From a virus (taxonomy: Duplodnaviria; Caudoviricetes): a stretch of DNA of 64,000 nt. Positions 16,314 through 62,015 of this stretch are shown here, piece after piece. Every line of letters starts with the position of its first letter. The first letter of the stretch is position 1. The stretch is from IMG/VR virus record IMGVR_UViG_3300025450_000002, positions 1,738-65,737 of that record; one strand, written 5' to 3'. The position numbers and the translations under genes are program-made. The notes beneath the pieces were generated by a model. It saw only the letters and a list, made by a program, of their open reading frames with translations, did not search any database and was not told the DNA's origin.

Positions 16314-16352
16314 TACATGGCAGTATGTTCTGCTACTAACAAGGAGAAGTAT

Positions 16353-16517
16353 ATGTTATACACAGTATCAGTATTATGGGGTAATAAAGAAGTAAAGCAC
16401 ACAGCACGCAGTAAGTCTAAGGCTCTTACATGGTTACACAAGTATCCTAACGAAGACATATTCATCAAGGTTACTGATGTGTTCGGTAAGACAGTCGCTG
16501 TTAAATACAAACGCTAA
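16353..16517 (+). CDS. First early protein (54 aa; start corrected)
   Basis: AAGGAGAAGT at 16341 precedes ATG 16353. Confidence 0.7.
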   Translation: MLYTVSVLWGNKEVKHTARSKSKALTWLHKYPNEDIFIKVTDVFGKTVAVKYKR

Positions 16518-16557
16518 TCAACAGGGGGCGAAAGCCCCCATCACTAAGGAGAAGTAT

Positions 16558-16638
16558 ATGGACTATCTATTTCCATTCGTAGCATTCGCAGCATTCATTG
16601 CACTTTTATATCTATTATCAATCAACGAGGAGGAGTAA
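16558..16638 (+). CDS. Early membrane micro-peptide (MDYLFPFVAFAAFIALLYLLSINEEE)
   Basis: AAGGAGAAGT at 16546; single hydrophobic helix. Confidence 0.65.
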   Translation: MDYLFPFVAFAAFIALLYLLSINEEE

Positions 16639-16640
16639 TC

Positions 16641-16856
16641 ATGAGGTTAGTATATGAAACAAGTGGTAACGAAGTACAAGTAGGTGATAAAACATCAACA
16701 TTCAGAGATGAGTTAGTTGAGGTGAAGTATATTACTAAGCCACACAAACCAAGTAGCACAGGTCGTGTAGGTGTGCGGTTTCTAAATGAACAACACACAG
16801 TCGAGTTCTTTCCAGGCGTTATCAATGCCGAGTGGATAGAAAGAGAAGATCGGTAA
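16641..16856 (+). CDS. Early hypothetical protein
   Basis: 71 aa; AGGAGGAGT RBS. Confidence 0.75.
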   Translation: MRLVYETSGNEVQVGDKTSTFRDELVEVKYITKPHKPSSTGRVGVRFLNEQHTVEFFPGVINAEWIEREDR

Positions 16857-16962
16857 CACCAGACCGGCGCAAGCCGGTTTGATACCAGTTACCTATCCCC
16901 GAGCGTGTTAAGCGTGCGTGTGGTCAAGCGTGTTAAATAGAGTTCCACTTAGGCGTGGAAGT

Positions 16963-16995
16963 TTGCATATCAATCAATTTATCAGGTATATATAA
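16963..16995 (+). promoter_or_regulatory. Early sigma70-like promoter abutting a TTCCAC-N6-GTGGAA site
   Basis: TTGCAT-N18-TATATA. Confidence 0.55.
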
Positions 16996-17060
16996 CTTAC
17001 CTAAGCAATATCGTTTAGGTTTTAATCAACGCATTACTTATTTTATAAGGAGAAGTAAAC

Positions 17061-17705
17061 ATGGTTACTAAAACCAAAAACCCCGTATTATCCCTCAACG
17101 TTACATCTTTAAAAGATGGTGCTTATCAACAAGCCAAAGCAAACGATACAATCCGTGTAGTTGCTCGTTATGCTATCAATAACATTGTAGGCTTTCCTGA
17201 AGATATCCCTAAGGAATCTTTAGAGCAGTTGAATGAGGGTTATCTCTTAAGATGGAATGAAAATAATCCCCCTGTTACATACGCCGTTATCAATGACCAT
17301 TTTATTACATACGACGAAGCAATCCATAAGGACTGTGAAAAGCGTGTTATTGGTGCTGATTACATTATGTCATTCAGTGGTCAGGCTTTTGGTGCATTAA
17401 AAGAGTCTGAACCATACTTACATGAGTTGTTAGTTCCAATTCGTAAGAAAATTCAAACTTACTGCAGTAACAGGGTCAACGATTTAAAGCGTGTAGGTAA
17501 ACAGATAGTCAAAGAGTCAGACCCTGCTAGTAATACACGCTCATCAATTAAGAGTTTCAACGAAGTTGTCAAGGAAGTATTCGACGGCAAGAATGGTTTA
17601 GTTGCACGTTGCAAGACTGCTAAAAAGCAACGCAACGATACTGAAGCCGACGAAGTAAAATTAACTCAATCAATTAACGCTTTCATGAAAGTATGGAATA
17701 GTTAA
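17061..17705 (+). CDS. Monocistronic early protein, unknown function
   Basis: 214 aa; own promoter, AAGGAGAAGT RBS and terminator. Confidence 0.8.
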   Translation: MVTKTKNPVLSLNVTSLKDGAYQQAKANDTIRVVARYAINNIVGFPEDIPKESLEQLNEGYLLRWNENNPPVTYAVINDHFITYDEAIHKDCEKRVIGADYIMSFSGQAFGALKESEPYLHELLVPIRKKIQTYCSNRVNDLKRVGKQIVKESDPASNTRSSIKSFNEVVKEVFDGKNGLVARCKTAKKQRNDTEADEVKLTQSINAFMKVWNS

Positions 17706-17715
17706 TTATTTTTAG

Positions 17716-17748
17716 ACCTGATACACGCAAGTGTATCAGGTTTTTTTT
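17716..17748 (+). terminator. Rho-independent terminator
   Basis: ACCTGATACAC-GCAA-GTGTATCAGGT followed by T-tract. Confidence 0.85.
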
Positions 17749-17837
17749 CGTCCGTCAACTATGAAACCAGTTACATATTTGTGCGTGCGTGAGTGTGCAT
17801 CATTTAATTTTATTCTAAATGACAGGATTTACTTTGC

Positions 17838-18424
17838 TTTCCACGTGGACGTGGAAAAATTCCAAGTTTTTGACGTCGCCCTCATGTGTTCGACAAAAAA
17901 ATTCTAGAATTTTTATAACAACTTGGAATTTTTTTCGCTTGTAACTTATTGATTTAGTTAAACAATAAAAAAAATTCCAAAAATTCCAACTTTTTTTGGG
18001 AGTATGTCAGGTTAAAAGCAGTTTTTTTCATATCAAGAGAGTCTTGCATAGAGTGCATATTAGTAAATAAAAAAATCGCCTGCAAAGTCCCGTATACTTA
18101 AAAAAACATGGAATTTTTGGAATTTTTGGAATTTTTTATATATTATTATTATTATTATTATTATTTAATTAATAAATACAAGGACTTAGCGATTTTCACC
18201 AACAAAAAATCAAGCACTTACCTCAACCCCAAACTTGGAATTTTTCTTAGAATTTTCCATCAAACTTGGAATTTTTTACCCACCACCTCAAACTAACTAA
18301 ATAAACTAAAGGGGTATTGTTATATGTAAAGTTATGTTATACTTATAACAGATGGGAGAAGTAAATTAACTCACCATCTACTTAGCGTCGTATTTTTATT
18401 TAATCTTCCACGTCCACGTGGAAA
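17838..18424. other. Putative replication origin: iterons, IHF sites, AT-rich core, terminal 19-bp inverted repeat
   Basis: About 11 copies of TTGGAATTTT/AAAATTCCAA in both orientations; (TAT)8 at 18141-18164; IHF consensus at 17942 and 18208. Confidence 0.65.
18315..18356 (+). promoter_or_regulatory. Early promoter, near-duplicate of the one at 19814
   Basis: Extended -10 TG-T-TATACT; shared ATATGTAAAGTTAT..TATACTTATAACAG.TGGGA. Confidence 0.65.
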
Positions 18425-18440
18425 ACCTTAGGAGAATGTC

Positions 18441-18638
18441 ATGGATAACAACCAAACTGCATTGAACGCTGTATTAACTTATAGACTCAAGAACACACAG
18501 GCTATCATCGAGGAGATTTTTACCCCAATGCAACGTGCTGAACTGCAACAACGTATTGACTCACTTCGTGCTATCCAAGTTGAAGACGAATACATACAAC
18601 AGAATGTAGTTGACTACATGGTAACGACCTTTCGCTAA
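18441..18638 (+). CDS. Early hypothetical protein
   Basis: 65 aa; AGGAGAA RBS. Confidence 0.7.
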   Translation: MDNNQTALNAVLTYRLKNTQAIIEEIFTPMQRAELQQRIDSLRAIQVEDEYIQQNVVDYMVTTFR

Positions 18639-18717
18639 TTAGTTTTTCACTACATGGTGGAACGTAAAACTTCCACCTATTCCATTTCTATTTATCTATT
18701 TTTATTTAGGAGAAGTT

Positions 18718-18930
18718 ATGAGTGCAATCAAAAGACAATACATGAACTGGTGCGAGCAACACAATATAGAACCTGAAGATGACCTTGCATGGCTTCACAA
18801 AGCAGTCGAGCAACCACAATGGGTCAACGACTTTAACAACTGGCTAGACCAAATCACTTATAAGCATCCACTATCAGATGGAGAACTAAATGACATGAAC
18901 AACACGAACATGGAGAACGACAATGATTGA
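18718..18930 (+). CDS. Early hypothetical protein
   Basis: 70 aa; AGGAGAAGT RBS. Confidence 0.7.
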   Translation: MSAIKRQYMNWCEQHNIEPEDDLAWLHKAVEQPQWVNDFNNWLDQITYKHPLSDGELNDMNNTNMENDND

Positions 18931-19141
18931 TGAATCTTTTACACCACAGTGCAAGTTATGTGGTTCTATCTATGATAAGCGTCGCTTTGATATAGGATTC
19001 TTATTCTGCATGCCATGTGGTAACGACGTAGCCAAGCAAGTCAAACGCACAGTAGTGCCAATGCACAAATCAAACTACATGATGGTCACAAACCGAGATG
19101 ACTTAATCGGTATTAACAACAAGGGAGGACTTGTCAAATGA
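18923..19141 (+). CDS. Zinc-finger early protein (CxxC...CxxC, DksA/TraR-finger-like)
   Basis: CKLCG...R...G...CMPCG...PMHKSNY. Confidence 0.7.
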   Translation: MIDESFTPQCKLCGSIYDKRRFDIGFLFCMPCGNDVAKQVKRTVVPMHKSNYMMVTNRDDLIGINNKGGLVK

Positions 19142-19171
19142 TAACCAATGAACAGAAGAAAGGGGAGTGAA

Positions 19172-19627
19172 ATGGGATATAGGTCAGCAGTAGCATACAC
19201 GATCAGGTTTATACCTGATGAAAACGAGAAGCCTTTAGGCAAGGTGCGTGATTCATTTTATACATTCTTAGCCGAAGCGAAAGCCAAGACAGAAACACAG
19301 TTATGTTTCGACGAAGACCAAGCCATGAATGTCAAAGAGGAAAATGGCGAGGGGTTTTATGTTAATGAGCAAGAGATGAAGATTGACTTCCTTGCGTGGC
19401 ACGTCAAGTGGTATGACGGCTATCCTGATGTCGATTGTCATGAAGCGTTACTCTCATTAGCGCAAGAGTGGTGCGAAGATGAAGCGACAGGTAACCCATA
19501 TATCGGTGGTGCTTATGTAAGGATTGGCGAGGAAGTAGATGACAACGACGAGCGATGGTTTGGAACTGCCGAGAGCGACTGGTTATCTATCAGTAGAACT
19601 ATATGTAGAGATGGGAAAGAGATATGA
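19172..19627 (+). CDS. Early hypothetical protein (MGYRS...KWY...VRIGEE family; start corrected)
   Basis: GGGGAG RBS before ATG 19172. Confidence 0.7.
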   Translation: MGYRSAVAYTIRFIPDENEKPLGKVRDSFYTFLAEAKAKTETQLCFDEDQAMNVKEENGEGFYVNEQEMKIDFLAWHVKWYDGYPDVDCHEALLSLAQEWCEDEATGNPYIGGAYVRIGEEVDDNDERWFGTAESDWLSISRTICRDGKEI

Positions 19628-19803
19628 GAATAACAGTTGAAAGACGTAGCGTGTATGGCAACGAGATGATATACCCCAAGTGCGAGACTGCGAAACTATT
19701 GGCGAAACTAGCCAACCATGTGACGCTAACCAAGCATGATATATCAGTTATTAAACAATTAGGCTATGAAGTTGTATGCCTAGCAAACGAAATAACTTTA
19801 TAG
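19624..19803 (+). CDS. Small early protein (59 aa, MRITVERRSVYGNEMIYPKC...IKQLGY)
   Basis: Missed by ORF track; ATGA overlap with upstream stop. Confidence 0.7.
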   Translation: MRITVERRSVYGNEMIYPKCETAKLLAKLANHVTLTKHDISVIKQLGYEVVCLANEITL

Positions 19804-19813
19804 AATAAAAGAC

Positions 19814-19856
19814 TTGTATAATATGTAAAGTTATAGTATACTTATAACAGTTGGGA
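19814..19856 (+). promoter_or_regulatory. Early sigma70 promoter
   Basis: TTGTAT-N17-TATACT. Confidence 0.7.
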
Positions 19857-19867
19857 AAGGAATATTT

Positions 19868-19960
19868 ATGTTAGAAGATATCGTAGTGAAGTTAGTAATC
19901 GTAGGTGCTTTAATCTATTTAGCCTTCCACGTTATAGTGGATTTTCATTTAATCAATTAA
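19868..19960 (+). CDS. Membrane micro-peptide (30 aa, MLEDIVVKLVIVGALIYLAFHVIVDFHLIN)
   Basis: AAAGGA RBS; hydrophobic; directly after promoter. Confidence 0.55.
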   Translation: MLEDIVVKLVIVGALIYLAFHVIVDFHLIN

Positions 19961-19969
19961 GGAGAAGTT

Positions 19970-20896
19970 ATGGACAGTATTAGAACCAACCTAGAAATGC
20001 CTGAGCATTTAATCTCACTAGCGACAAGCGCAGTATTAGTAAGCGTCGATGTCAGCGTGTGGTCAGCAACGAAACAAGATAGGGGTATCAGTGATGAGGT
20101 TACTACATCAAAGAATGCAGACAAGTCGGCAGGTCGCTACGTTAAGAATCTATTGGCGAACCACCCGTCGCACAAAGCCATTGTGAATTATAGGCAGACT
20201 ATATATAACTGGCTTCAGCGTCGCACTTATAAGTGGAATCAGTCACAAGAATTACTACCATGCGTTGACCTACCCAAGTTTAAGCAAGAGTGGCATGAAC
20301 ATGAAACTGCGTTCCACGTCCTCGTGGATACGTTTAAGAACCAGTATGATTCTATCGTATCGGATATGGCTTTCAAACAAGGTGATATGTTTAACAGAAA
20401 TGATTATCCACCCAAAGAACAGATTACATCAAAGTTTAGTCTTAACTTGTATGTGAGCGAAGTGCCTGTTAATGACTTTAGATGCAATATTGCAAGGGAT
20501 ATCGCAGATGATCTTTTTAGTTCATTGTCCAAGCAATCCAAGTCAATTATAGAGAACATAGCGAACGAACAAGTCGAAAGGCTAATAGATGTGATGCAGA
20601 GTATCTCGCATTGTTGTGGTGTGGACGAGTTAGTTCCGAAAGATGGTGGTGAAATAAAAACCAAGCGTCGCAAGATATACGATACGACGATACAGAAAGC
20701 GTTAGAGATGTGTGAGAGTTACAAAGTATTTAATCTTAAGCATGATAACGAGCTAGAACTGGCACGTGCATCGCTAGAGAAAGTCTTACATGGTGTTACG
20801 GCAGAGGATATCCGAGATAGTGACGCTGTGCGTTCCAATGTCAAAGAGGGGGTTGATGGCATTTTGTCGAAGTTCGGTGCATTTAGTTGTGTATAG
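19970..20896 (+). CDS. Helical early protein (DUF3150-like) associated with the AAA/vWA pair
   Basis: VSVWSATKQD...KNLL...GDMFNRNDYP pattern; AAGGAGAAGT RBS. Confidence 0.6.
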   Translation: MDSIRTNLEMPEHLISLATSAVLVSVDVSVWSATKQDRGISDEVTTSKNADKSAGRYVKNLLANHPSHKAIVNYRQTIYNWLQRRTYKWNQSQELLPCVDLPKFKQEWHEHETAFHVLVDTFKNQYDSIVSDMAFKQGDMFNRNDYPPKEQITSKFSLNLYVSEVPVNDFRCNIARDIADDLFSSLSKQSKSIIENIANEQVERLIDVMQSISHCCGVDELVPKDGGEIKTKRRKIYDTTIQKALEMCESYKVFNLKHDNELELARASLEKVLHGVTAEDIRDSDAVRSNVKEGVDGILSKFGAFSCV

Positions 20897-20904
20897 GAGG
20901 TTTC

Positions 20905-21045
20905 ATGGATGAAGCATTAATGCAGTTTTATGAATGGAAAGAATGGGCAGTGCCATTCACACCCGAAGGGGAAAAGTTGTATGAAGCACAGAAGACAAGC
21001 TGGTTGGCTTGTTGGGAATTTTTAACTAATCAAAAGGAGAAGTAA
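20905..21045 (+). CDS. Small Trp-rich early protein (46 aa)
   Basis: AGGAGG RBS; fills gap; stop abuts next ATG. Confidence 0.65.
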   Translation: MDEALMQFYEWKEWAVPFTPEGEKLYEAQKTSWLACWEFLTNQKEK

Positions 21046-22119
21046 ATGAGTAAAATGAATTTTGTTCCAACAGTATCTATCAACGAGTTGCGTAAACTCA
21101 TTCCTGTAATAGCATCAGAATTGACAGTAGTCATAACTAGCGAACCTGGTTGTGGCAAGACAAGTCTATTAAAAATGATGGAAGAAGATCTTGGAGATGC
21201 TTACCAATATATCTACGTTGACTGTCCTGTAAAAGATATGTCAGACATAGGTATGACAATACCGAACCACACTACCAAGACCCTTGAGTATTATGTGTCT
21301 AGTCTATTCTGTTTAGATGACCCAAGACCTAAGGTTATTTGTCTAGACGAGTTCATGAAGTCACCCAAGTTATTGCAAGTTATCTTTACTCGCATGATGT
21401 TAGATAAAATGGTAGGCGATGTTCCACTACCACGTGGAAGCCTAATCTTTGCAACGAGTAACAATGCTTCCGATGGTGTAGGCGACTCAATGCTTGCTCA
21501 TGCTGGCAATCGTGTATGTAAGGTAGAGATGGCAAAGCCTGATACTAATACTTGGCTTCAATGGGCATCAGATAATAATATCTCTCGTGTTGTCAGAGCG
21601 TTCGTTGCGTTGTTCCCAAGAGTTCTCGCATCATATAGAGATGGCAACCAAGACGATAACCCATACATCTTCAAACCTAACATGAACACCTTGTCATTCT
21701 GTTCGCCTCGTTCCTTAGCGAAGTGCGACGTGATTGTAAAGAATAGAGATGTCTTAGGTGAGAATGCAACAATGGTCGCACTTGCAGGCACTATCGGTCA
21801 GAGTGCATCGGCAGATATGTCAGCGTTTCTATCGCTAGAGAAAACCTTAATAGATGTAAAAGATATTCTCAAAGCACCAGAGTTAGTAAAGATACCTGAC
21901 GAGATATCAGCGCAGTTAATGATTATGTTTCAGGCAGTAGATGTATTAGAGACGCAAGACGAGTTGACGAAGTTCATGTCATTCGTTAATAAGATTCCTA
22001 GTTCAGAAGTCCAAGCCGTATTCTTTACTATGATGATGCGTAATGCAAAGGCAATTAAGTTGGCTCGCAATAATGCACAGATTGCAGAGTGGGCTAAGAA
22101 CAACCATGAATTATTTTAA
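21046..22119 (+). CDS. MoxR-like AAA+ ATPase
   Basis: Walker A EPGCGKT, Walker B ICLDE, ATSN sensor 1, SPRS sensor 2. Confidence 0.85.
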   Translation: MSKMNFVPTVSINELRKLIPVIASELTVVITSEPGCGKTSLLKMMEEDLGDAYQYIYVDCPVKDMSDIGMTIPNHTTKTLEYYVSSLFCLDDPRPKVICLDEFMKSPKLLQVIFTRMMLDKMVGDVPLPRGSLIFATSNNASDGVGDSMLAHAGNRVCKVEMAKPDTNTWLQWASDNNISRVVRAFVALFPRVLASYRDGNQDDNPYIFKPNMNTLSFCSPRSLAKCDVIVKNRDVLGENATMVALAGTIGQSASADMSAFLSLEKTLIDVKDILKAPELVKIPDEISAQLMIMFQAVDVLETQDELTKFMSFVNKIPSSEVQAVFFTMMMRNAKAIKLARNNAQIAEWAKNNHELF

Positions 22120-22129
22120 GGAGAAGTAA

Positions 22130-22336
22130 ATGTTAAAGACATTAAATATAACAGACGAAGAGTTTACTAGATTAACAGACCAAGCAACAATAGATATGTA
22201 TGAAGAATACTTATCGGAATCAGAAGATAAAGTCACTAGCGATCTTCGTGAAGACACATTCATCAATGGGTTTCGATTAGGTATGAAATTCGTAGCCTTA
22301 TTAATTAAGAAACAGATAGAAGGAGAAAGTAAATGA
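22130..22336 (+). CDS. Early hypothetical protein
   Basis: 68 aa; AAGGAGAAGT RBS. Confidence 0.7.
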   Translation: MLKTLNITDEEFTRLTDQATIDMYEEYLSESEDKVTSDLREDTFINGFRLGMKFVALLIKKQIEGESK

Positions 22337-22527
22337 TTACGATAACACCAAGCGAGTTTATTTTAATAATATGGGGGATAGTTATGACTGTCTTATGGCA
22401 AAGAGCATTATACAAGTCAGAGGAGTTCAAACAGTTTACAGTTCGCAAGTTGCAAGAGATTGTGAAAGGCGAAGCGAAGATTGTAGACAATGGCGAATCA
22501 ATCCAAATAATTAGGATAAAGGACTAA
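22333..22527 (+). CDS. Small membrane protein
   Basis: N-terminal TM helix; AAGGAGAAAGT RBS. Confidence 0.65.
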   Translation: MITITPSEFILIIWGIVMTVLWQRALYKSEEFKQFTVRKLQEIVKGEAKIVDNGESIQIIRIKD

Positions 22528-22529
22528 TC

Positions 22530-23819
22530 ATGGAAATGAAAAACAAACAGGAAACAAGACTGAAGAAAGCACATATCGCATTGATGAAACACCCTGAGAC
22601 TGCGTTGTATTCAGGTGTGATGCTTATGGGTAAGAGCGAGATAGCGGACGAAGTATTTACTGCATATACAGATGGTGTGAACAAGAGATATTCTAAGCCA
22701 TTCGTTGAGAAAATACTTATCGAAGCGAAGTTGCGTGGCTTAGTCTTGCATGAGAATCTTCACGTTGCATTGAAACAGATTCCAAGAGGTAAGGATATGT
22801 TCAAGGAAGATAGACAGATTGCAAACATGGCAGCCGACTTTGTGGTCAACGACATAATAAAGAATATTACAGGAACAGTTGCGAATGGTCACGAGCCTAT
22901 CGTAGAGTTACCTGATGGTGCGTTGTATGACTCATTCTTTCATAATTGGTCGATGCGTGAAGTATATAACCACATACGCAAAGAGAATCCTCAGCGACAG
23001 AAACCTAGTGATAGCTCATGTGATGAGCCTACCAAAGGCGATGGAGATGAAGATAGTAGTCCACGTGGTAGTGGAACGATATATGCGAATGGCAAGCCTT
23101 ATGATATTGGGCATCAATTCGATGAACATGACTGGGAATCGTATGTCGAAGGACTCAGCGACGAGGAACGCAAGGAGTTGGGAGATAAGATTGACCGAGC
23201 CTTGCGTGAGGGTGGTATGCTTGCAGGTCGTATGGGTGGCAAGATGCCTAGACAGATTAGTGACTTGCTTGAACCGAGAGTAGATTGGCGAGAAGTCTTG
23301 CGTGAGTTTGTCGCTTCCACGATGAAAGGGAACGATGAATACACATGGCGCAAGATGAGTAAGCGTCACATGGCTAATGACATTTATCTACCAAGCATGG
23401 AGAACGAGACGATCGGTGAGGTTGTCGTTGCGATAGATACTTCAGGTTCAATCGGTGAGCGTGAGTTGACAGAGTTTGCAACGGAACTGGCATCAATCGT
23501 CGATCTTGTGTCGCCTGAAGCAGTTAGAGTTATATGGTGGGATTACGATGTTCATGGTGAGCAATACTTCAAGCCTGAACATTACAGAGATATTGCATCA
23601 TTACTAAAACCCTTAGGTGGTGGTGGCACTAGAGTCTCATCAGTCAACCATTACATCAATGAGAAGAAGATTAACGCAGAGTGTGTCATCGTGTTTACCG
23701 ATGGTTATGTAGAAAGTGACATCGAGTGGACAATCTCTTCCCCTACCCTGTGGATGGTAACTCAGAACAAAGCACTTGAAGTCCCATCAGGTAAGAAAGT
23801 CGTAGTTAACAATGATTGA
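22530..23819 (+). CDS. DUF2201-type metallopeptidase plus vWA domain protein
   Basis: TAYTDG, HENLH (HExxH), MIDAS DTSGS, GGGGT, VFTDG. Confidence 0.85.
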   Translation: MEMKNKQETRLKKAHIALMKHPETALYSGVMLMGKSEIADEVFTAYTDGVNKRYSKPFVEKILIEAKLRGLVLHENLHVALKQIPRGKDMFKEDRQIANMAADFVVNDIIKNITGTVANGHEPIVELPDGALYDSFFHNWSMREVYNHIRKENPQRQKPSDSSCDEPTKGDGDEDSSPRGSGTIYANGKPYDIGHQFDEHDWESYVEGLSDEERKELGDKIDRALREGGMLAGRMGGKMPRQISDLLEPRVDWREVLREFVASTMKGNDEYTWRKMSKRHMANDIYLPSMENETIGEVVVAIDTSGSIGERELTEFATELASIVDLVSPEAVRVIWWDYDVHGEQYFKPEHYRDIASLLKPLGGGGTRVSSVNHYINEKKINAECVIVFTDGYVESDIEWTISSPTLWMVTQNKALEVPSGKKVVVNND

Positions 23820-24120
23820 AGTATTCACCAATTACGTAAGAGCAAACGCTCGAGTTAATTATGTTAATGGAGAGATAGCGTATTCACGTGATTGGCAAAC
23901 CCAATTTATAAGGATATGTATGCCTGATGGAAAAGAACAATGGTATAGCACCAATGCGAATGACCCTAGATTTGCAAACGATATAACAGAGTTGTTAAAA
24001 GAAACGCATGGGGATAGAGCATATTTCTATGCGTTGGAAAGAGTAGTTAGTGAGAGTAGTAGTAAGGAAGAAGTAAAACTATGGAAAGCAGTATTAACTT
24101 TATTAGACAAGGAGAAGTAA
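23812..24120 (+). CDS. Early hypothetical protein
   Basis: 102 aa, in operon. Confidence 0.6.
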   Translation: MIEVFTNYVRANARVNYVNGEIAYSRDWQTQFIRICMPDGKEQWYSTNANDPRFANDITELLKETHGDRAYFYALERVVSESSSKEEVKLWKAVLTLLDKEK

Positions 24121-25164
24121 ATGGATAGCACATTGAATTGGAATAGACTTACAAACATAACTAAAACTGTGAAACCCTTTCGTGGAACAACCAATAGGTT
24201 TCCTATCGCTAATAGATCTCATAATACAAAGTGTTTTTATGTAGAAGAGTTAGATGGCGAAACTGTATACCGAGTGACGTATGGCTATCATTACAAAGAA
24301 ATCTTCCATACTAAAGAAGAATGGGAGAAAGACCCAAATAAAATCTCTTGTAGAGACTGGGAAGAAGATGAGAGCAAGAAGTATGTTACCTACACTACTA
24401 TACCTAGAGACTTAGGCATCGTGCGTTCTGACAACACGTTTCAGTTTACTGCCAAATACTACGGACAAGGTGACAATACTATGCTTAGTGGTTGGGGGCA
24501 AGGTTGGTTCTTTAGTAGTTCACGTCATGGTGGAATGGTATATATGAACGCATACAGAGGTGATGATAGAAGTATCTTTCATCCGATATTCGAAGGTATG
24601 CGAATCAACATGAATACTATGATGCCCCATGAATCTTCTAACTATCAAGTGTTAGGTAGACGTGTATCACGTATTGATGCCAAGAAGTTTTTAACTAGAT
24701 ACGAAACATTCTACAAAGTAAATGAGGTTATGTTCAAAACGATTGATTGGAAGACATTGATGGATACGGCAGTCGACGTAGTAAGTTCATTGGTAGATGA
24801 AAGTGAGTTACAAAACTATTACATCAGTAGCACATCAAACGAGAAAATAATAACGTGGGCAGACGATAACATTGACGTAGCACCACTTGACTCAGCCCTA
24901 GCATTTGCAGTTGGGCATGACATAGGTAATATGTATCGACGAATGAGAGCGCACGCTATTGACTCAAACAGTAATCAATTCCGTTGGATGGATTCAGAGC
25001 CAATGAATCTCTACGCAAATCTCAAGCGTAAGTTGAATCATGAACTATACAAGCGTCACCATGGAGTAATGAAAGACGTTACGTTCCCGATGGGCAAACC
25101 ATATCCAGCAAGTAACTGGGGGATACGAGTTATGGTTGATGGTAAAGAAGTAAAACAATACTAA
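24121..25164 (+). CDS. Early hypothetical protein
   Basis: 347 aa; AAGGAGAAGT RBS. Confidence 0.8.
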   Translation: MDSTLNWNRLTNITKTVKPFRGTTNRFPIANRSHNTKCFYVEELDGETVYRVTYGYHYKEIFHTKEEWEKDPNKISCRDWEEDESKKYVTYTTIPRDLGIVRSDNTFQFTAKYYGQGDNTMLSGWGQGWFFSSSRHGGMVYMNAYRGDDRSIFHPIFEGMRINMNTMMPHESSNYQVLGRRVSRIDAKKFLTRYETFYKVNEVMFKTIDWKTLMDTAVDVVSSLVDESELQNYYISSTSNEKIITWADDNIDVAPLDSALAFAVGHDIGNMYRRMRAHAIDSNSNQFRWMDSEPMNLYANLKRKLNHELYKRHHGVMKDVTFPMGKPYPASNWGIRVMVDGKEVKQY

Positions 25165-25172
25165 GGAGAATC

Positions 25173-25490
25173 ATGGTTGAAATAGAAAAAGTAGAGATGC
25201 CCTACAAGGAATACGTTATTTCGGACAAGGTAGACGAGAGCCTAGCATATCTTTCTAACTATACTGCTCGACGTGTTAGGTATAAGTTTCCTAATGGATA
25301 CGGCGCTAGTGTTGTTATGGGTAATTTGTTTTATTCCGATGAGGGGACAGGTTTATATGAATTATGTCCCATGAAAGATAATGCGTTGTGGTATGACGCA
25401 GTAGACCCTAGCAACAATGATGTGTATGGGTATCTCAATGATGAAGAGTTATATATTTTATTAACGAAAATTTTAACGAAGGAGAAGTGA
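25173..25490 (+). CDS. Conserved phage protein (YKFPNGYGASVV family)
   Basis: Characteristic FPNGYGASV...GLYEL...DVxGYL pattern. Confidence 0.75.
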   Translation: MVEIEKVEMPYKEYVISDKVDESLAYLSNYTARRVRYKFPNGYGASVVMGNLFYSDEGTGLYELCPMKDNALWYDAVDPSNNDVYGYLNDEELYILLTKILTKEK

Positions 25491-25491
25491 A

Positions 25492-26427
25492 ATGAAATAC
25501 GCAATAGAAGGAATTACAAAGCAAGCAACAATAGACTATATCGAGAGTTCACCAGTAAAGAAACTCATATATGAATTGAATTACAAGTATGGCTTAAAAG
25601 CGTTGACTGTAATAGCAGTCGAAAAACGAGGGGAAAATGTCCGTCACGAGGTTGTGTTAACCGACCCTATGGGTGGGTTTGCCGTAGGTAGAGTATGGAC
25701 AACAGTAGACAATAAAGACATCGTGTATCACTATCGTTCGCCTTACGCTTCAAAGGATAGAGGTAGGACTAGTGAGGATAGAGAAACTTATTATGGTAAG
25801 AAATTATCATCTTTGATGAGTGTGCTAAAAACTAACGAAGTAATACCTACTAAAGATAGTCCACAACTATTAACTATTCATAATCGTATTTTCGCCAATG
25901 CTAATTACTCTTTACAAGAAACACACGGTAAACACAGAAAAGATGTAGAGTTAACTTTAGATGAACAACATTCTTTATTGAGATACGCACTAGGTGAAAC
26001 TACTACTCTATTTGATGAAAATAAATGTAAAAAAATACTTGACAAATATAATACGTTAGATAAAATAAAACAAGAATCAGACGAAGATGTAGATAGGTTC
26101 TTCAACAAAGGTTTCTATGCAGTTGGTGTAGATATGTTTAATCATTTAATAGTGGGGAAAGTTGTGAAAAATAAATCTAGTTACGAAATAGTAGAATCAT
26201 TCGAGAGGGTGATGGACTTCAGTAAGCATGAACATCTACAAGCAATCATGACTATGCAAAAAGTTTATCATGAGCAACAAGGTAAATACACTAAGTTCTA
26301 CGGAAATTACATTCCACTATACAGTGGATACCTAAAAGACCTAGACATCATTCAGATGAATAATCGTGAGCCACACATTCATGACTTAGCTTGGACTCTT
26401 ATCCCATGCACAGCACTTTCCGTATGA
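25492..26427 (+). CDS. Early hypothetical protein
   Basis: 311 aa; AAGGAGAAGTG RBS. Confidence 0.8.
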   Translation: MKYAIEGITKQATIDYIESSPVKKLIYELNYKYGLKALTVIAVEKRGENVRHEVVLTDPMGGFAVGRVWTTVDNKDIVYHYRSPYASKDRGRTSEDRETYYGKKLSSLMSVLKTNEVIPTKDSPQLLTIHNRIFANANYSLQETHGKHRKDVELTLDEQHSLLRYALGETTTLFDENKCKKILDKYNTLDKIKQESDEDVDRFFNKGFYAVGVDMFNHLIVGKVVKNKSSYEIVESFERVMDFSKHEHLQAIMTMQKVYHEQQGKYTKFYGNYIPLYSGYLKDLDIIQMNNREPHIHDLAWTLIPCTALSV

Positions 26428-26777
26428 AGATAGAAATGCTTAGCCCAATAGCACATCAATATACACATGGGCTATATCGTGTGCCGTTACATAAAGACGG
26501 AAATCATTACACACTATTTGTAGCCGATGGGTATAAGAGAGACTTTGACGAGAACACTTTACCTGATGAGATCAAAACTAAGATAGCCATGATACTTGCG
26601 AGAGATAAACAAATCGCACATGACCATGAGTTAACACACTTAGGATTGATGGCATCTGTAAAAGATGATGCGTTAATAGACGTGGGGTGGCAAAGGAGTG
26701 AAAGTTGGTTCATCATCGTGTTACCCATAGCATCGTTAATGAAACTAAGAGGAGAGAATAATGGCGCAGACACCTGA
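26424..26777 (+). CDS. Hypothetical protein (start set at ATGA overlap)
   Basis: Open frame coupled to upstream stop. Confidence 0.65.
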   Translation: MKIEMLSPIAHQYTHGLYRVPLHKDGNHYTLFVADGYKRDFDENTLPDEIKTKIAMILARDKQIAHDHELTHLGLMASVKDDALIDVGWQRSESWFIIVLPIASLMKLRGENNGADT

Positions 26778-27069
26778 AGCAAAAGTTAAAAAGAAAGTAA
26801 AACAGTATCTTACCACTAGAGGTATTTATTTTACTATGCCGTTCACTGCTGGTTTTGGGGCGAACGGAGTGCCTGACATACTTGTGTGTTATCAAGGAAA
26901 GTTTATAGCGATAGAGTGCAAGGCTAATGGCAACAAGCCAACAGCATTACAAGGAGAACACATGAAGAGAATTCAACGTGGGGGTGGAACGGCAGTTGTC
27001 GTTGATGAAAGGAATGTCGACACAATGCTAGAGGGATTATTTGATGATACAGATGATGGGAGATGCTAG
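26761..27069 (+). CDS. VRR-NUC family nuclease
   Basis: TPEAKVK...GVPDI...IECKA...PTALQ...GG. Confidence 0.85.
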   Translation: MAQTPEAKVKKKVKQYLTTRGIYFTMPFTAGFGANGVPDILVCYQGKFIAIECKANGNKPTALQGEHMKRIQRGGGTAVVVDERNVDTMLEGLFDDTDDGRC

Positions 27070-27084
27070 ATAACTGGCTTCAAT

Positions 27085-27306
27085 ATGACCGACCAAGATA
27101 AAGAATATTTAAGAGATTTGTTTGCGTGCTTCGCCATGAATGCGATAGTAAGTCGAGGTATAAGAGAAGAGATAGTAGATAGTGTTGCAGAAAACTCTTA
27201 TATGATGGCAGACGCTATGATGGAAGCCCGCAACAAAAAAGAACCCAAGATGGGTATAACCGCAGTAAACCAACCTAAGAGGAGAAGTAGAAATGAAAGT
27301 AAGTAA
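27085..27306 (+). CDS. Conserved small phage protein (RDxFAxxAM...YxxADAM family)
   Basis: Recognisable motif; 73 aa. Confidence 0.7.
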   Translation: MTDQDKEYLRDLFACFAMNAIVSRGIREEIVDSVAENSYMMADAMMEARNKKEPKMGITAVNQPKRRSRNESK

Positions 27307-27748
27307 AATCCAAGCAGTAAAAAACTTGATGGACAAAAACCCTAGCATGACCGCATCTGAGATATCCAAGAAGTTAGGAATTAAGATTGGCTATGTCTAC
27401 ACAATGATGTCTAAGATAAGAAAACCAAAATTTGATATTAAAAAGATAGAAGCCGTTTTACAGGAAGAAGCATCACCCCCAGTAAGCGTCGAACAGGTAA
27501 AAGATTTTGTATATAGCATTTCACTAGGACGTGGAACAGTAGATAACGTCAATCATCCATCCCATTACAAGACAGGTGGCATTGAAACAATCGACTTCAT
27601 TGAAGCGAAGCAGTTGGGATACCATCTCGGTAACGTCGTCAAATATATTACTAGAGCAGACCACAAGGGTAACAAGTTGGAAGACTTGATGAAAGCCCAA
27701 TGGTATTTGAGCCGTGCGATAGAGAACGAGGAGAAGAATAATGGATGA
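27293..27748 (+). CDS. HTH plus DUF3310 (T7 gp1.7-like nucleotide kinase) protein
   Basis: N-terminal ASEISKKLG HTH; VNHPSHY...ETIDFI...GNVVKY...EDLxKAxWYL. Confidence 0.8.
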   Translation: MKVSKIQAVKNLMDKNPSMTASEISKKLGIKIGYVYTMMSKIRKPKFDIKKIEAVLQEEASPPVSVEQVKDFVYSISLGRGTVDNVNHPSHYKTGGIETIDFIEAKQLGYHLGNVVKYITRADHKGNKLEDLMKAQWYLSRAIENEEKNNG

Positions 27749-28127
27749 AGGATTTGTAATATTACTACTGGCAGGTATCCTTGTTGTAACTAGTGGTATT
27801 GGTGGATGTATGTATGGGATGCCTAAATACAATGTCTATCATCAACAGATGGAAGGCGAAGCCGAATTAGCGAAAGCAAACTTTAGCAAACAAACTGCTA
27901 TACAAGAAGCCCACGCTAAGATGGAATCCGCTAAGTTGCTTGCAGACGCAGAAGTGATCAGGGCTGAAGGAGTTGCAAAAGCTAATAAGATCATTGGCGA
28001 TAGCTTGAACAACAACGAAGCGTATTTGCGATATCTGTATATCAATAATCTTGAACACACGCAGAATCAGATTATCTATGTGCCGACTGAAGCGAATCTA
28101 CCTATTTTAGAAGCAAAGCGTAAGTAA
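27741..28127 (+). CDS. Membrane protein with SPFH/band-7-like coiled coil
   Basis: N-terminal TM helix; AEVIRAEGVAKANKII...YVPTEANLPI. Confidence 0.65.
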   Translation: MDEGFVILLLAGILVVTSGIGGCMYGMPKYNVYHQQMEGEAELAKANFSKQTAIQEAHAKMESAKLLADAEVIRAEGVAKANKIIGDSLNNNEAYLRYLYINNLEHTQNQIIYVPTEANLPILEAKRK

Positions 28128-28133
28128 TTTTTT

Positions 28134-28167
28134 GGGGGGTAAGGTTCATGCCTTGCTCCCCTTTTTT
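28134..28167 (+). terminator. Rho-independent terminator
   Basis: GGGGGTAAGG-TTCATG-CCTTGCTCCC followed by T-tract. Confidence 0.75.
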
Positions 28168-33171: not shown

Positions 33172-33825
33172 ATGAACTTTACATGGTCATTCTCCTCTCT
33201 TAAAGACTATATTAACTGTCCTAAGCAGTATCAGGAAGTTAAGGTTCTTAAACGCTACGTCAAATATCCGACGGAGCAGATGCGTTATGGTACGGAAGTG
33301 CATAAGGCTTGCGAGGACTACGTTGCTAGAGATATACCGCTTGCGAAGAACTATCAGAGGTTTCAGAGTACACTCGATTCACTACGGGCTATTCCGGGTG
33401 TAAAGTATCCTGAGCATCAGATGGCACTCTCATCAGCGAAAGAACCATGTGCGTATGGTAAAGGTTATTGGGTACGAGGGATTGTAGACTTGCTAATCGT
33501 GGATGGTAATGAGGCTTTTATCATTGACTATAAAACAGGCAGTGCAAAATACCCTGACGTAAAACAATTAACTTTGATGGCTTTAATGACGTTCGCTCAC
33601 TTCCCTGAAGTTAACAATATAAAGGCTGGTCTATTGTTTGTCATGCACGATGCTTTCGTTACTGAAGTTTATAGACGTGAGAACATAGATAAGATGTGGG
33701 AAACTTTTGAATCCCACCTTGAAAGATTACAGCTTTCATACGAAAATGATGTTTGGCAAGCTAATCCAACACCTCTTTGCCCGTGGTGTCCAGTTAAGAC
33801 TTGCGAATTCCATAAGGAGAGATGA
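33172..33825 (+). CDS. PD-(D/E)XK Cas4/RecB-like exonuclease
   Basis: WSFSSL...CP, GTEVH, RGIVD...IDYKTG, CPWCxxxxC. Confidence 0.85.
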   Translation: MNFTWSFSSLKDYINCPKQYQEVKVLKRYVKYPTEQMRYGTEVHKACEDYVARDIPLAKNYQRFQSTLDSLRAIPGVKYPEHQMALSSAKEPCAYGKGYWVRGIVDLLIVDGNEAFIIDYKTGSAKYPDVKQLTLMALMTFAHFPEVNNIKAGLLFVMHDAFVTEVYRRENIDKMWETFESHLERLQLSYENDVWQANPTPLCPWCPVKTCEFHKER

Positions 33826-34169
33826 TGCCATACGTTAACAAACCTAGACCATACGCAAAAGAATATCAACAAGAGAAATCACGTGGTGAACATGAACGAC
33901 GCATGGAGCGTCAACGTGCTAGACGTGCGATTGATAAAAAGTTTGCAGACAAGAACAAGAACGGCAAAGCCGATATCCGTGAGGGCAAAGACGTAGCACA
34001 CGTCAAAGCGCTCGATAAAGGTGGATCAAATAAAGCTGGTGTGTTTATTGAGAGCGCACATGGCAATCGTTCTTTTAAGAGAGATTCAAAAGGTAATCTG
34101 ATTTCCGAGAAGTCTAAGAAAGAAAAAGGCGGAGAGAAGAAATTAAGTAAGGTAGTAAAAGTTAAATAG
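33822..34169 (+). CDS. HNH-like small basic protein
   Basis: DVAHVKALDKGGSN...NRS. Confidence 0.7.
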   Translation: MMPYVNKPRPYAKEYQQEKSRGEHERRMERQRARRAIDKKFADKNKNGKADIREGKDVAHVKALDKGGSNKAGVFIESAHGNRSFKRDSKGNLISEKSKKEKGGEKKLSKVVKVK

Positions 34170-34310
34170 TTTGTTACGTCGGACGTCGTAAGGCATGAGT
34201 GGACTAAAACCATGTCAGTTGAGCGGTGAACTGAAGACTAGTGTAACCCCATTAGCACTTCTCCTTGCACGACAGGCTCAACCGATTAACTCCCGTAAGG
34301 AGTTGTTAAA
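34170..34310 (+). ncRNA. Putative structured sRNA presenting an anti-Shine-Dalgarno loop complementary to early-gene RBSs
   Basis: Stems GGCAUG/CAUGUC, GUUGAGC/GCUCAAC, GUGUAA/UUGCAC, AACUCC/GGAGUU; ACUUCUCCUU (34257-34266) is the reverse complement of AAGGAGAAGU. Confidence 0.6.
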
Positions 34311-34328
34311 TTTAGTTAAGGGACAGTC

Positions 34329-35891
34329 GTGGAAATAGTACAAAATCAAGCGGTAAAAGTTGTTATACAGTCAGATAATGTTGGGTTAATAACTAATCAT
34401 ATAGAAAAAAGCGAAATACTGACAGACAACGGGAATCATGCTGAAGTGTTAGTGTATTGGGGTATTGAAGAAATGCAACACCTAACAAAAGTCCTTCAGG
34501 AAAAAGTTCCATCACCGATAGAAAAGGATTACATCTGGCCCGGAATGTATACACCATTCCATCATCAAAAAGTTACAGCATCATTCCTCTCCTTACATCA
34601 ACGCGCTTTCTGTTTCAATGAAGCTGGTACAGGTAAAACATCTTCAGTCATTTGGGCTATCGACTATCTAATGTCTCAAGGTTTAGTTAAGCGTGTGCTG
34701 GTTATCTGTCCTTTATCAATTATGTATTCAGCATGGCAGGCAGACATTTTTAAAACTGCTATGCACCGCACCGTTGCAGTCGCTTATGGAGATGCAAGCA
34801 AACGCAAGAAAGTTATCAATGGGGCTTATGAGTTTGTAATCATTAACTATGATGGTGTAAATATTGTCCGTGAAGATGTTGCTAAAGCAGGCTTTGACCT
34901 GATCGTAGTTGATGAAGCTAATGCCTACAAGACTGTTACCACAAAGCGCTGGAAGACGTTGGCAAAGCTAATCACCCCTAGTACACGCTTATGGATGTTA
35001 ACAGGTACGCCTGCATCTCAGTCACCAGTAGATGCCTTCGGTCTAGCAAAGCTCGTCTCGCCCGCTAATGTGCCGAAGTATCTTACGGCATGGAGAGATA
35101 AAGTAATGTACCAAGTTACTAAATTTAAATACGTACCTAGACCTACTGCACGGCATGATGTCTACAATGCTTTGCAACCAGCAATAAGATTTGAGAAAGC
35201 GCAGTGTCTCGATTTACCACCAGTCATGTATCAGACACGTGAAGTACCACTTAGCGTTCAAGTAACTAAATACTATAACAATATAAAAAACCAAATGCTT
35301 ATAGAAGCCGCAGGAGAAAAAGTTAGCGCTGTCAATGCGGCGGCGAAGCTAACAAAGCTATTACAGATTTCGGGAGGGGCTGTCTATACGGACACCCATG
35401 ATATTGTGGAGTTTGATGTATCACCACGATTAAATGCCCTAACGGAGGTGCTTGATGAGACAGAACATAAAGTTATTATATTTGTTCCGTATGGTCACAC
35501 CATTGATTTAGTTTCTAAACATTTACAAGGAGAAGGAGTTACAAATGAAATTATTAGAGGAAGCGTAAGCGCAAGAGAACGATCTGAAATCATTAACCGT
35601 TTTCAGACAACAGATTTTCCACGGGTTTTAATCATTCAACCACAATCAGCATCACATGGTGTTACTTTAACCGCTGCCAATACTGTAGTCTTTTGGTCGC
35701 CGGTCATGAGTGTGGAAACATATTTACAATGTATTGCTCGTATTGATCGTGTAGGTCAAGTGAATAACATGACTGTAGTTCATTTACAAGGCTCAGAGGT
35801 CGAACGAAAGATGTATGCGATGCTACAAGGCAAGGTAGATAACCATGAGAAGTTGGTTGATTTATACAAGGAAGAGTTAGGAATAAAATGA
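34329..35891 (+). CDS. SNF2-family helicase
   Basis: NEAGTGKT, VVDEA, LTGTP, QxxARIDRxGQ. Confidence 0.9.
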   Translation: MEIVQNQAVKVVIQSDNVGLITNHIEKSEILTDNGNHAEVLVYWGIEEMQHLTKVLQEKVPSPIEKDYIWPGMYTPFHHQKVTASFLSLHQRAFCFNEAGTGKTSSVIWAIDYLMSQGLVKRVLVICPLSIMYSAWQADIFKTAMHRTVAVAYGDASKRKKVINGAYEFVIINYDGVNIVREDVAKAGFDLIVVDEANAYKTVTTKRWKTLAKLITPSTRLWMLTGTPASQSPVDAFGLAKLVSPANVPKYLTAWRDKVMYQVTKFKYVPRPTARHDVYNALQPAIRFEKAQCLDLPPVMYQTREVPLSVQVTKYYNNIKNQMLIEAAGEKVSAVNAAAKLTKLLQISGGAVYTDTHDIVEFDVSPRLNALTEVLDETEHKVIIFVPYGHTIDLVSKHLQGEGVTNEIIRGSVSARERSEIINRFQTTDFPRVLIIQPQSASHGVTLTAANTVVFWSPVMSVETYLQCIARIDRVGQVNNMTVVHLQGSEVERKMYAMLQGKVDNHEKLVDLYKEELGIK

Positions 35892-61470: not shown

Positions 61471-62015
61471 TATCTAAACCTCGGACCATTAACCCACATA
61501 GTTGCGCTATATCTTACGCCAGATTCAATGGGGATAACTCTATGTTCTAAGAATGATGGAAATGCGATAATAGAACCTTTTTCTAAAGGCGCTGTATAGT
61601 CTTGATATAACTTAAGTTGAAACTGCCCACCAGTAAATTCGCTTGGATCATTCATTAAACAAACTACTGTTATCTTTCTATCTATTGGTCTGCCAGATAA
61701 AGGAAACGTATCTACGTGCCAATGGTAATGTTGTTTTGGCCCATATTCTGCATATTGAACAGCTTCATGTCCTTTAGCATCAAAATCCCAGCCGCATTCT
61801 TTATTGGCAATCATGGCAAAGTTATACATCTTTAGACCAAACCAATTATCATCTTCAGCAAATGCAACTGTTGTATCTCTACCAACAACATCTAAGCTTT
61901 CCCCATCCGGACCCATTGTGGCTTTCTTAGTTTCAATCGCTTTAAATTCTTGGTTAGCCTTATTAATCTCTTCTTCAGGTACTCGTCCAAGATACCAAAT
62001 AGGGAGATGACTCAT
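61470..62015 (-). CDS. 2OG-Fe(II) oxygenase (prolyl-4-hydroxylase-like)
   Basis: YxWHVD...RKIT...FxGG...[19 protein letters not shown]. Confidence 0.9.

Follow-up and report, generated by a model that had tools for sequence, protein, structure and literature searches.

A structured phage RNA whose variable loop co-varies with a ribosome-site tag of the same genome

The timing of gene expression in lytic phages is generally attributed to promoters, sigma factors, and proteins. In phage T4, RegB and RegA shut off early mRNAs post-transcriptionally through features of the ribosome-binding region, and in bacteria the RNAs RNAIII and RsaE of Staphylococcus aureus and RoxS of Bacillus use pyrimidine-rich loops to pair with the Shine-Dalgarno (SD) regions of several mRNAs. 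Satellite phage P4 makes a CI RNA that is similar to the c4 RNA of phages P1 and P7. Here, we describe a conserved RNA element that lies upstream of an SNF2-family helicase gene in a Caudoviricetes virus and carries a variable loop complementary to a short tag at the ribosome-binding sites (RBS) of ten genes of the same genome. The window, that is, the whole stretch of 64,000 nucleotides that was analyzed, corresponds to positions 1738-65737 of the 65,737-base IMG/VR record IMGVR_UViG_3300025450_000002 and is thus a near-complete phage genome.

According to the sections of PMC12197685 that deal with c4, this RNA of phages P1 and P7 blocks translation through loop complementarity at a ribosome-binding site. 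The start-associated sequence (SAS) of Cluster K mycobacteriophages is introduced in PMC3203893 as a short asymmetric tag with an AGGAG core, located a few nucleotides before start codons. In the SAS sections of that article, the tag is described as confined to non-structural genes and to one orientation, a single SAS in the opposite orientation and not at a gene start is reported for each of four Cluster K phages, and the authors left open whether RNA or protein is the binder (PMC3203893). The function of SAS was still called unverified in 2025 in the relevant passage of PMC12699233. A full-text literature search, supplementary files excluded, returned no description of a phage RNA targeting a tagged gene class in the parts of the articles that it covered.

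Co-variation of the loop with a ribosome-site tag

The top of hairpin P3 in the window element (Table 1) is antisense to the tag AGGAGAAGU. Within the window, the 9-mer AGGAGAAGT has 12 copies, compared with an expectation of 0.28, and none of 100 shuffles reached 12. Ten of these copies precede gene starts on the + strand between 16342 and 27288, and one, on the - strand at 34257-34265, is the loop; the reverse complement of the tag occurs on the + strand once in the window, inside this loop. The flanks of the ten copies vary when compared within the window, and therefore only a word of 9-10 nt is common to the sites. Complementarity of at least 8 nt to the P3 interior was detected at 12 of the 20 predicted starts in the + arm of 16.3-28.2 kb (the tagged arm), at 0 of the 17 starts in the + arm of 28.2-40.9 kb, and at 0 of the 39 starts in the two - arms, with a mean predicted duplex energy of -16.7 versus -10.9 kcal/mol. 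The gene layout leads us to infer that this tagged arm corresponds to the early genes. An earlier note, made by a model from the letters of this stretch, had placed the core before ten early-gene starts and before no replication or late gene start, which agrees with these counts. It had also described an 18-nt stretch of the loop region as the reverse complement of an SD, a spacer, and an ATG; only a core of 9-11 nt is common to gene starts, and the full 18-mer gave no second match within 3 mismatches. The twelfth copy of AGGAGAAGT, at 63452-63460 (+), lies opposite a - strand open reading frame (ORF; 62012-63844), has no start codon after it, and is probably due to chance.

The DNA upstream of the SNF2 gene (10-20 kb) was taken for 19 relatives. 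The P3 top was antisense to a word recurring at the starts of the same phage, and this word varied between phages. The loop of the window reads ACUUCUCCUU and its tag AAGGAGAAGU; the corresponding pairs are GACUUCUCCGG and CCGGAGAAGUC in genome G001, UUGCUCCUUU and AAAGGAGCAA in G005, UGCUUUCCUG and CAGGAAAGCA in G007, UUGAUCUCCAU and AUGGAGAUCAA in G010, and ACAGCCUCCA and UGGAGGCUGU in G014, and a further pair is UCGUUUUCUCCGG/CCGGAGAAAACGA. In L165, a relative of G007, the loop is longer by one U and the site by one A. A 13-nt match at one gene was found in G015, and matches of 7-9 nt were found in G013, G009, G004, G003, and G020. At least ten distinct loop/tag pairs were recognized.

The own-genome excess of complementarity to the P3 interior over permuted pairings was z 7.1-7.4 in 17 genomes, with 0 of 50,000 permutations reaching it. 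The controls using sense, reversed, and complement-only loops gave z values from -0.5 to 0.4, the complement-only control (-0.2 to 0.3) having a base composition identical to that of the antisense string. When a longer 3' part of the element was used, the sense control showed a weak own-genome excess (p 0.0017), which was gone with the P3 interior alone. The own genome ranked at the top for 7-8 of the 17 loops. The excess was reproduced with flat controls in a replicate set of 23 non-overlapping contigs (z 3.5-3.9; 21 and 5 of 50,000 permutations), which covers 4-13 kb upstream only and contains many near-identical seeds. These contigs were the ones used out of 36 new elements, and elements already counted and contigs with less than 4 kb upstream were excluded. 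The co-variation between the loop and the early RBS extension of each phage, for which the earlier note had proposed to search, was thus found in both sets.

The commonest ribosome-site 8-mer was also chosen without regard to the loop; for 5 of 16 genomes, the loop contained its sole + strand reverse complement. Genome G019 was first scored as lacking the element; the covariance model of the element, R1, then placed it behind a different gene, at a distance of 4.7 kb on the upstream side of SNF2. Its loop GCUCCUAU (pair CUCCUAU/AUAGGAG) matches the top ribosome-site 8-mer that had been computed before; over the 27.5 kb covered for this genome, ATAGGAG occurs 7 times, always ahead of a start, and the single copy of CTCCTAT is the one in the loop. 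Among orthologues, complementarity of at least 7 nt to the own loop was kept by 26 of 51 tagged genes versus 2 of 97 replication-arm genes (Fisher p 9e-13); therefore, tagging is retained on the same genes as the sequences of tag and loop diverge. As in a regulatory RNA, the seed is complementary to the ribosome sites of its putative targets, and this complementarity is kept by changes on both partners. These comparisons demonstrate, at the level of genome sequences, that loop and tag co-vary.

Architecture, distribution, and setting of the RNA element

Structure statistics were obtained from an alignment of 43 sequences of the element, which were selected for a perfect P1; the P1 pairing of 100% is therefore by construction, and the remaining helices were unselected. 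In this alignment, 90.9% of cells were paired versus 72.5% in shuffles. The covariation score of 0.592 was matched by 0 of 500 shuffles, for which the score was 0.247, and slid registers gave at most 0.139. Helix P0 has 3 bp in the window versus 5-6 bp in relatives, and all 6 of its pairs show two-sided changes, with 71% of cells paired. It encloses the P1 5' strand together with an invariant AGUG (34198-34201), and its loop holds GUWAGG in the family. P0 and P1 interleave and would therefore form a pseudoknot. An invariant AAC (34208-34210; WAAC in the family alignment) is located 5' of the 3' strand of P1, for which the variants GGUGUG/CGCAUC, GGUACG/CGUACC, and GACGCA/UGCGUC were found among relatives. 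A variable hairpin, P2, belongs to the family and is missing from the window. The outer helix of P3 is altered on both sides at 7 of 7 pairs, with 96% of cells paired; every P3 and P4 pair changes on both sides, and the P4 loop is of the GUAA type across the family. G-U pairs are frequent, occurring in 30 of the 43 sequences at one P1 pair, and therefore only an RNA of the + strand fits. The alignment establishes the predicted structure as conserved and assigns it to the + strand.

Three helices that the earlier note had read from the letters, GGCAUG (34192-34197)/CAUGUC (34211-34216), GUUGAGC (34218-34224)/GCUCAAC (34276-34282), and AACUCC (34288-34293)/GGAGUU (34299-34304), are present in the sequence, conserved, and co-varying in relatives. 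Its inner stem GUGUAA/UUGCAC had to be replaced, the conserved inner helix of the family being GUG/CAC (Table 1). By predicted unpaired probabilities, the P3 top presents its seed single-stranded, as is expected of a regulatory RNA that occludes an RBS, and in 13 of 16 genomes this seed is more accessible than the remainder of P3, with mean unpaired probabilities of 0.64 versus 0.47.

Table 1. Coordinates of the RNA element, the tags, and neighboring features in the window
Feature	Position	Strand	Description
Whole conserved RNA element	34181..34306	+	Model R1 (covariance model), cmsearch 79.7 bits, E 1.3e-19
P0 pseudoknot helix	34185..34204	+	GUC 34185-34187 with GAC 34202-34204
P1	34192..34216	+	GGCAUG 34192-34197 with CAUGUC 34211-34216, plus G34199-C34210 and U34200-A34209
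P3	34218..34282	+	Outer helix 34218-34224/34276-34282; inner helix GUG 34226-34228/CAC 34268-34270; variable pyrimidine-rich top
Putative anti-tag seed CACUUCUCCUUG in P3 top	34256..34267 (core 34257-34265)	+	Mean unpaired probability 0.53 in the window
P4 hairpin	34288..34314	+	AACUCC 34288-34293, CGUAA loop, GGAGUU 34299-34304, weak U-rich tail; terminator-like
Ten AGGAGAAGU tags	16342..27288 (span)	+	Each 1-4 nt before ATG
Starts of the AGGAGAAGU tags	16342, 16547, 17048, 18708, 19960, 21035, 22119, 24110, 25480, 27280	+	
Upstream gene	33822..34169	+	115-aa very basic protein, HNH-like motif, lysine-rich tail
SNF2-family helicase gene	34329..35891	+	GTG start; Pfam SNF2-rel_dom, Helicase_C, ResIII
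Strong intrinsic terminator	28134..28161	+	12-bp stem, 7 G-C pairs, T6

A search with the SNF2 protein listed 80 IMG/VR loci of 57-81% identity, and more exist. R1 gave 53 matches, each genome contributing one; these fall in 50 of the 80 listed SNF2 loci, and the window holds a single copy. A fixed 21-nt pattern of the P4 hairpin (CCGAYTNNCCCCCGTAAGGGG) was present in at least 120 IMG/VR contigs, and 78 R1 matches, five of them P4 alone, were obtained in 80 loci retrieved via this pattern. Both sets combined comprise 90 distinct elements. The R1 seed excluded loci without a standard P4 (L046, L048, L053, L062, and L027), and L034 was dropped from alignment A1 as its match is identical to that of L031. 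The Rfam check for a prior description that the earlier note had suggested matched no family, C4 included, either at the gathering score in the window or at E <= 1 in the loci of 8 relatives. A tRNA/tmRNA scan of the gap found none, and the window region and the element of a relative each gave 0 matches when searched as DNA against GenBank phages. By SNF2 protein, the nearest named phages are Rollin, RHph_TM3_14A, Xp15, and Effie (36-40% identity); these have no gap before SNF2 and gave 0 R1 matches in their whole records, in a search with no positive control alongside. The relatives G016, G017, and G018 lack the element in their whole records. The element represents a widespread structured RNA family without a description in Rfam.

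In five loci (L103, L123, L130, L132, and L155), the 21-nt P4 pattern occurs without the rest of the element, matching R1 positions 117-137 only; the P4 hairpin may be a module used in other contexts. On the 6.3-kb contig L111 (3349-3782, -), two P4 patterns lie about 300 nt apart with R1 scores of 96.4 and 20.5 bits, which may be a tandem or a degenerate second copy. L027 and L101 belong to one record (G020, 70,742 bases) and carry the element plus neighbor genes at both contig ends with identical scores. This record seems to repeat itself, as a concatemer or by terminal redundancy, and therefore the G020 rows are partly duplicated in the counts.

A strict TTGAC-N16-18-TAnnnT match was located upstream of the element in 9 of 44 loci, and in 6 of these 9 the -10 box ends 11-17 nt before P1, so that the transcript would start at P0. 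In relatives without the element, a TTGAC-type promoter is found 49-75 nt before SNF2; therefore, the element heads the replication operon. In G019, P4 is followed by a U-run and forms a clear terminator. Depending on the phage, the RNA may be part of a leader, a product of processing, or a small RNA with its own terminator.

The genes of the window form a leftward block at 1-16.5 kb, a rightward block at 17-40.9 kb, and a second leftward block that continues to the end. The RNA element is housed in the 159-nt gap between the gene for the 115-aa basic protein and the SNF2 gene, which is the first gene 3' of the element. The basic protein gave 0 Pfam or PHROG matches, and its gene adjoins SNF2 in most relatives, whether the RNA is present or not. 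Its role as an obligate partner of the RNA is unlikely, as the gene persists without the RNA and the RNA of G019 is located elsewhere. A 47-aa ORF on the + strand (34195-34338) was rejected as a gene because its ATG, inside P1, is missing in 26 of 44 relatives. The products named in the tagged arm are an ATPase, an HNH endonuclease, a nucleotide kinase, and a protease, the remainder being mostly unnamed. The terminator listed in Table 1 closes this arm right behind the last tagged gene (27741-28127) and divides it from the replication genes, and past it lie the genes for a DNA polymerase, a nuclease, SNF2, and a DUF927 primase-helicase. Another strong terminator (17714-17743) comes after the first tagged gene.

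Proposed function and rival explanations

Loop and tag change together between phages, and therefore a pairing of RNA and site that controls early protein synthesis is very probable. We consider it probable that the variable P3 top pairs with a phage-private tag overlapping the SD, most likely blocking translation of the tagged genes. This supports, as far as sequences can, the proposal of the earlier note that the gap holds a candidate RNA silencing early genes. Pairing in vivo, repression, and a separate small RNA rather than a 5' leader of SNF2 are what we infer for the phage itself. In the proposed mechanism, the gap would encode a pseudoknotted + strand RNA, which would form the 5' leader of the SNF2/replication operon or else end at P4 as a small RNA. 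A constant scaffold composed of the P0/P1 core, the P3 stem, and P4 would present the variable pyrimidine-rich P3 top, which would base-pair with the private tag overlapping the SD of 10-12 genes in the preceding + arm. Since the pairing would cover the ribosome-binding site, a translation block is the most likely effect; translation of the tagged class would cease once the replication operon is transcribed, and the mRNAs might be destabilized as well.

Several observations weigh against this proposal. Four of the 17 genomes (G006, G008, G011, and G012) have no match of at least 8 nt in the DNA searched, as do 11 of the 23 replicate contigs. In G005 and G015, the commonest ribosome-site word is not the matched one and 1-2 genes are matched, and relatives free of the RNA also carry recurrent ribosome-site words, with 3-4 copies each. 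Start calling was uniform and crude, taking the first start with an SD-like word per ORF of at least 45 aa, uncurated. The gap of the window, folded singly as the earlier note had suggested, was no better than shuffles (z -0.14 for the + strand and -0.22 for the other strand). The seed has a mean unpaired probability of 0.53 in the window, and its CUUC part is paired in the minimum-energy fold. A consensus promoter directly upstream was found neither in the window nor in 35 of the 44 loci. A T-rich tail 3' of P4 is present in just 26 of the 90 distinct elements, and P4 of the window is weakly terminator-like, so that a free small RNA is not assured. Finally, conservation of the core (invariant AGUG, AAC, and pseudoknot) goes far past what a plain antisense hairpin would require, a feature for which the proposal does not account.

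The conservation of this core is also the main argument for a different outcome of the same pairing, in which the RNA binds the tagged sites and acts positively or otherwise, by protecting the mRNA, by guiding a nuclease or protein held by the core, or by organizing a long transcript in cis. The pairing evidence is identical for this alternative; however, pairing at the SD normally blocks initiation, as established for c4 in the sections cited above (PMC12197685), and no partner gene is strictly linked to the RNA, the 115-aa gene being found also where the RNA is absent. We therefore regard such a positive or other action as doubtful. Somewhat less likely still is a purely cis-acting leader of the SNF2/replication operon (riboswitch-like, protein-binding, or thermosensing), the P3 top of which would sequester its own SD and match other sites incidentally. 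In most loci, the element does have the SNF2 ribosome site on one side and the preceding gene, or a promoter, on the other, element-free relatives have their promoter shortly before SNF2 as described above, and the conserved unpaired nucleotides of the core resemble a binding pocket. However, the mean longest match between the loop and the 70 nt downstream was 5.25 nt for own pairs and 5.21 +/- 0.10 nt for shuffled pairs in 88 elements, and in G019 the element, which follows a different gene and has a U-run after P4, is separated from SNF2 by 4.7 kb. On these grounds, sequestration of the SNF2 ribosome site in cis was rejected. Such a leader would also leave the co-variation with distant ribosome sites unaccounted for, although a leader that senses something in addition to pairing could exist.

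On the - strand of the window, the same site reads as an SD, 8 nt, and an ATG that opens only the 4-codon ORF MGLH (ATG GGG TTA CAC TAG), as the earlier note had stated, and an SD-like word with a start was found in 12 of 88 P3 tops versus 4.0 +/- 2.0 in shuffles. It is nevertheless highly improbable that the site is a gene start on this strand, whether of a mini-ORF or as a ribosome trap, or that it acts at the DNA level, for example as an origin or in packaging: 76 of the 88 tops lack such a start, so that the mini-ORF is not conserved, the helices retain G-U pairs, which are A-C mismatches on the other strand, and the promoters, where present, face the + direction. Base composition deserves weighing too, as CTCC occurs in 59 of 88 loops and CUCC-like words in all, the sites all contain GGAG, and matches of 4-6 nt are universal; CU-rich loops could on this account always match purine-rich ribosome sites. 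Against it stand the own-genome excess of z about 7 with a flat complement-only control of the same composition (z -0.2 to 0.3) and the count of 12 copies of the AGGAGAAGT 9-mer where 0.28 are expected, and chance therefore retains hardly any credibility.

Returning to translational blocking by the P3 top, a tentative extension is that the element is a guide-RNA-like scaffold with an exchangeable loop, whose core might recruit a host or phage factor (ribosomal subunit, nuclease, or chaperone) to all tagged mRNAs. If true, a guide-like RNA would act as a programmable switch by which an entire temporal class of genes is retired, and a private tag with one reverse copy within an RNA could be a general phage strategy, which might explain the start-associated sequences of mycobacteriophages, unexplained since 2011. 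One RNA heading the replication operon could retire a whole earlier gene class via a short private RBS word. The proposal offers a testable function for start-associated tags reported in phages without explanation, and a compact orthogonal tag/anti-tag pair of this kind could serve to engineer bacterial gene classes.

Comparison with described systems

The effectors of the T4 RegB/RegA system are proteins (a nuclease and a repressor), whereas the candidate effector in the window is an RNA. RNAIII, RsaE, and RoxS are host RNAs with fixed seeds that recognize ordinary SD sequences; the window RNA has no Rfam match, and its seed extends past the SD into a private word that changes from phage to phage.

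The window tag resembles SAS as defined in PMC3203893, within the sections describing it, in being asymmetric, having an SD core, and marking one gene class in one orientation with a lone reverse copy. The Cluster K consensus GGGATAGGAGCCC is not the (A)AGGAGAAGT of the window, AGGAG alone being in common, and the phages are different. SAS is further set apart by its published description, which in the sections concerned names no RNA partner. The lone reverse SAS has the same geometry as the window loop, and an RNA there would be worth looking for.

The likeness to c4 of phages P1 and P7 (Rfam C4) lies in a phage-encoded structured RNA on the same strand as its targets, with complementary stretches in loops, and in the variation of loop and target among related phages, as given in the c4 sections of PMC12197685. 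In contrast to c4, which targets one operon leader, the window RNA would target many genes via a common tag. Its predicted fold, with the pseudoknot core, P3, and P4, differs from that of c4, with no match to the C4 family, its carriers show no visible lysogeny context in the parts examined, and processing by RNase P is a feature of c4. Judged from the sequence comparisons, the window RNA appears to represent a type of base-pairing regulatory RNA with a tag shared across many genes, for which c4 is the nearest described system.
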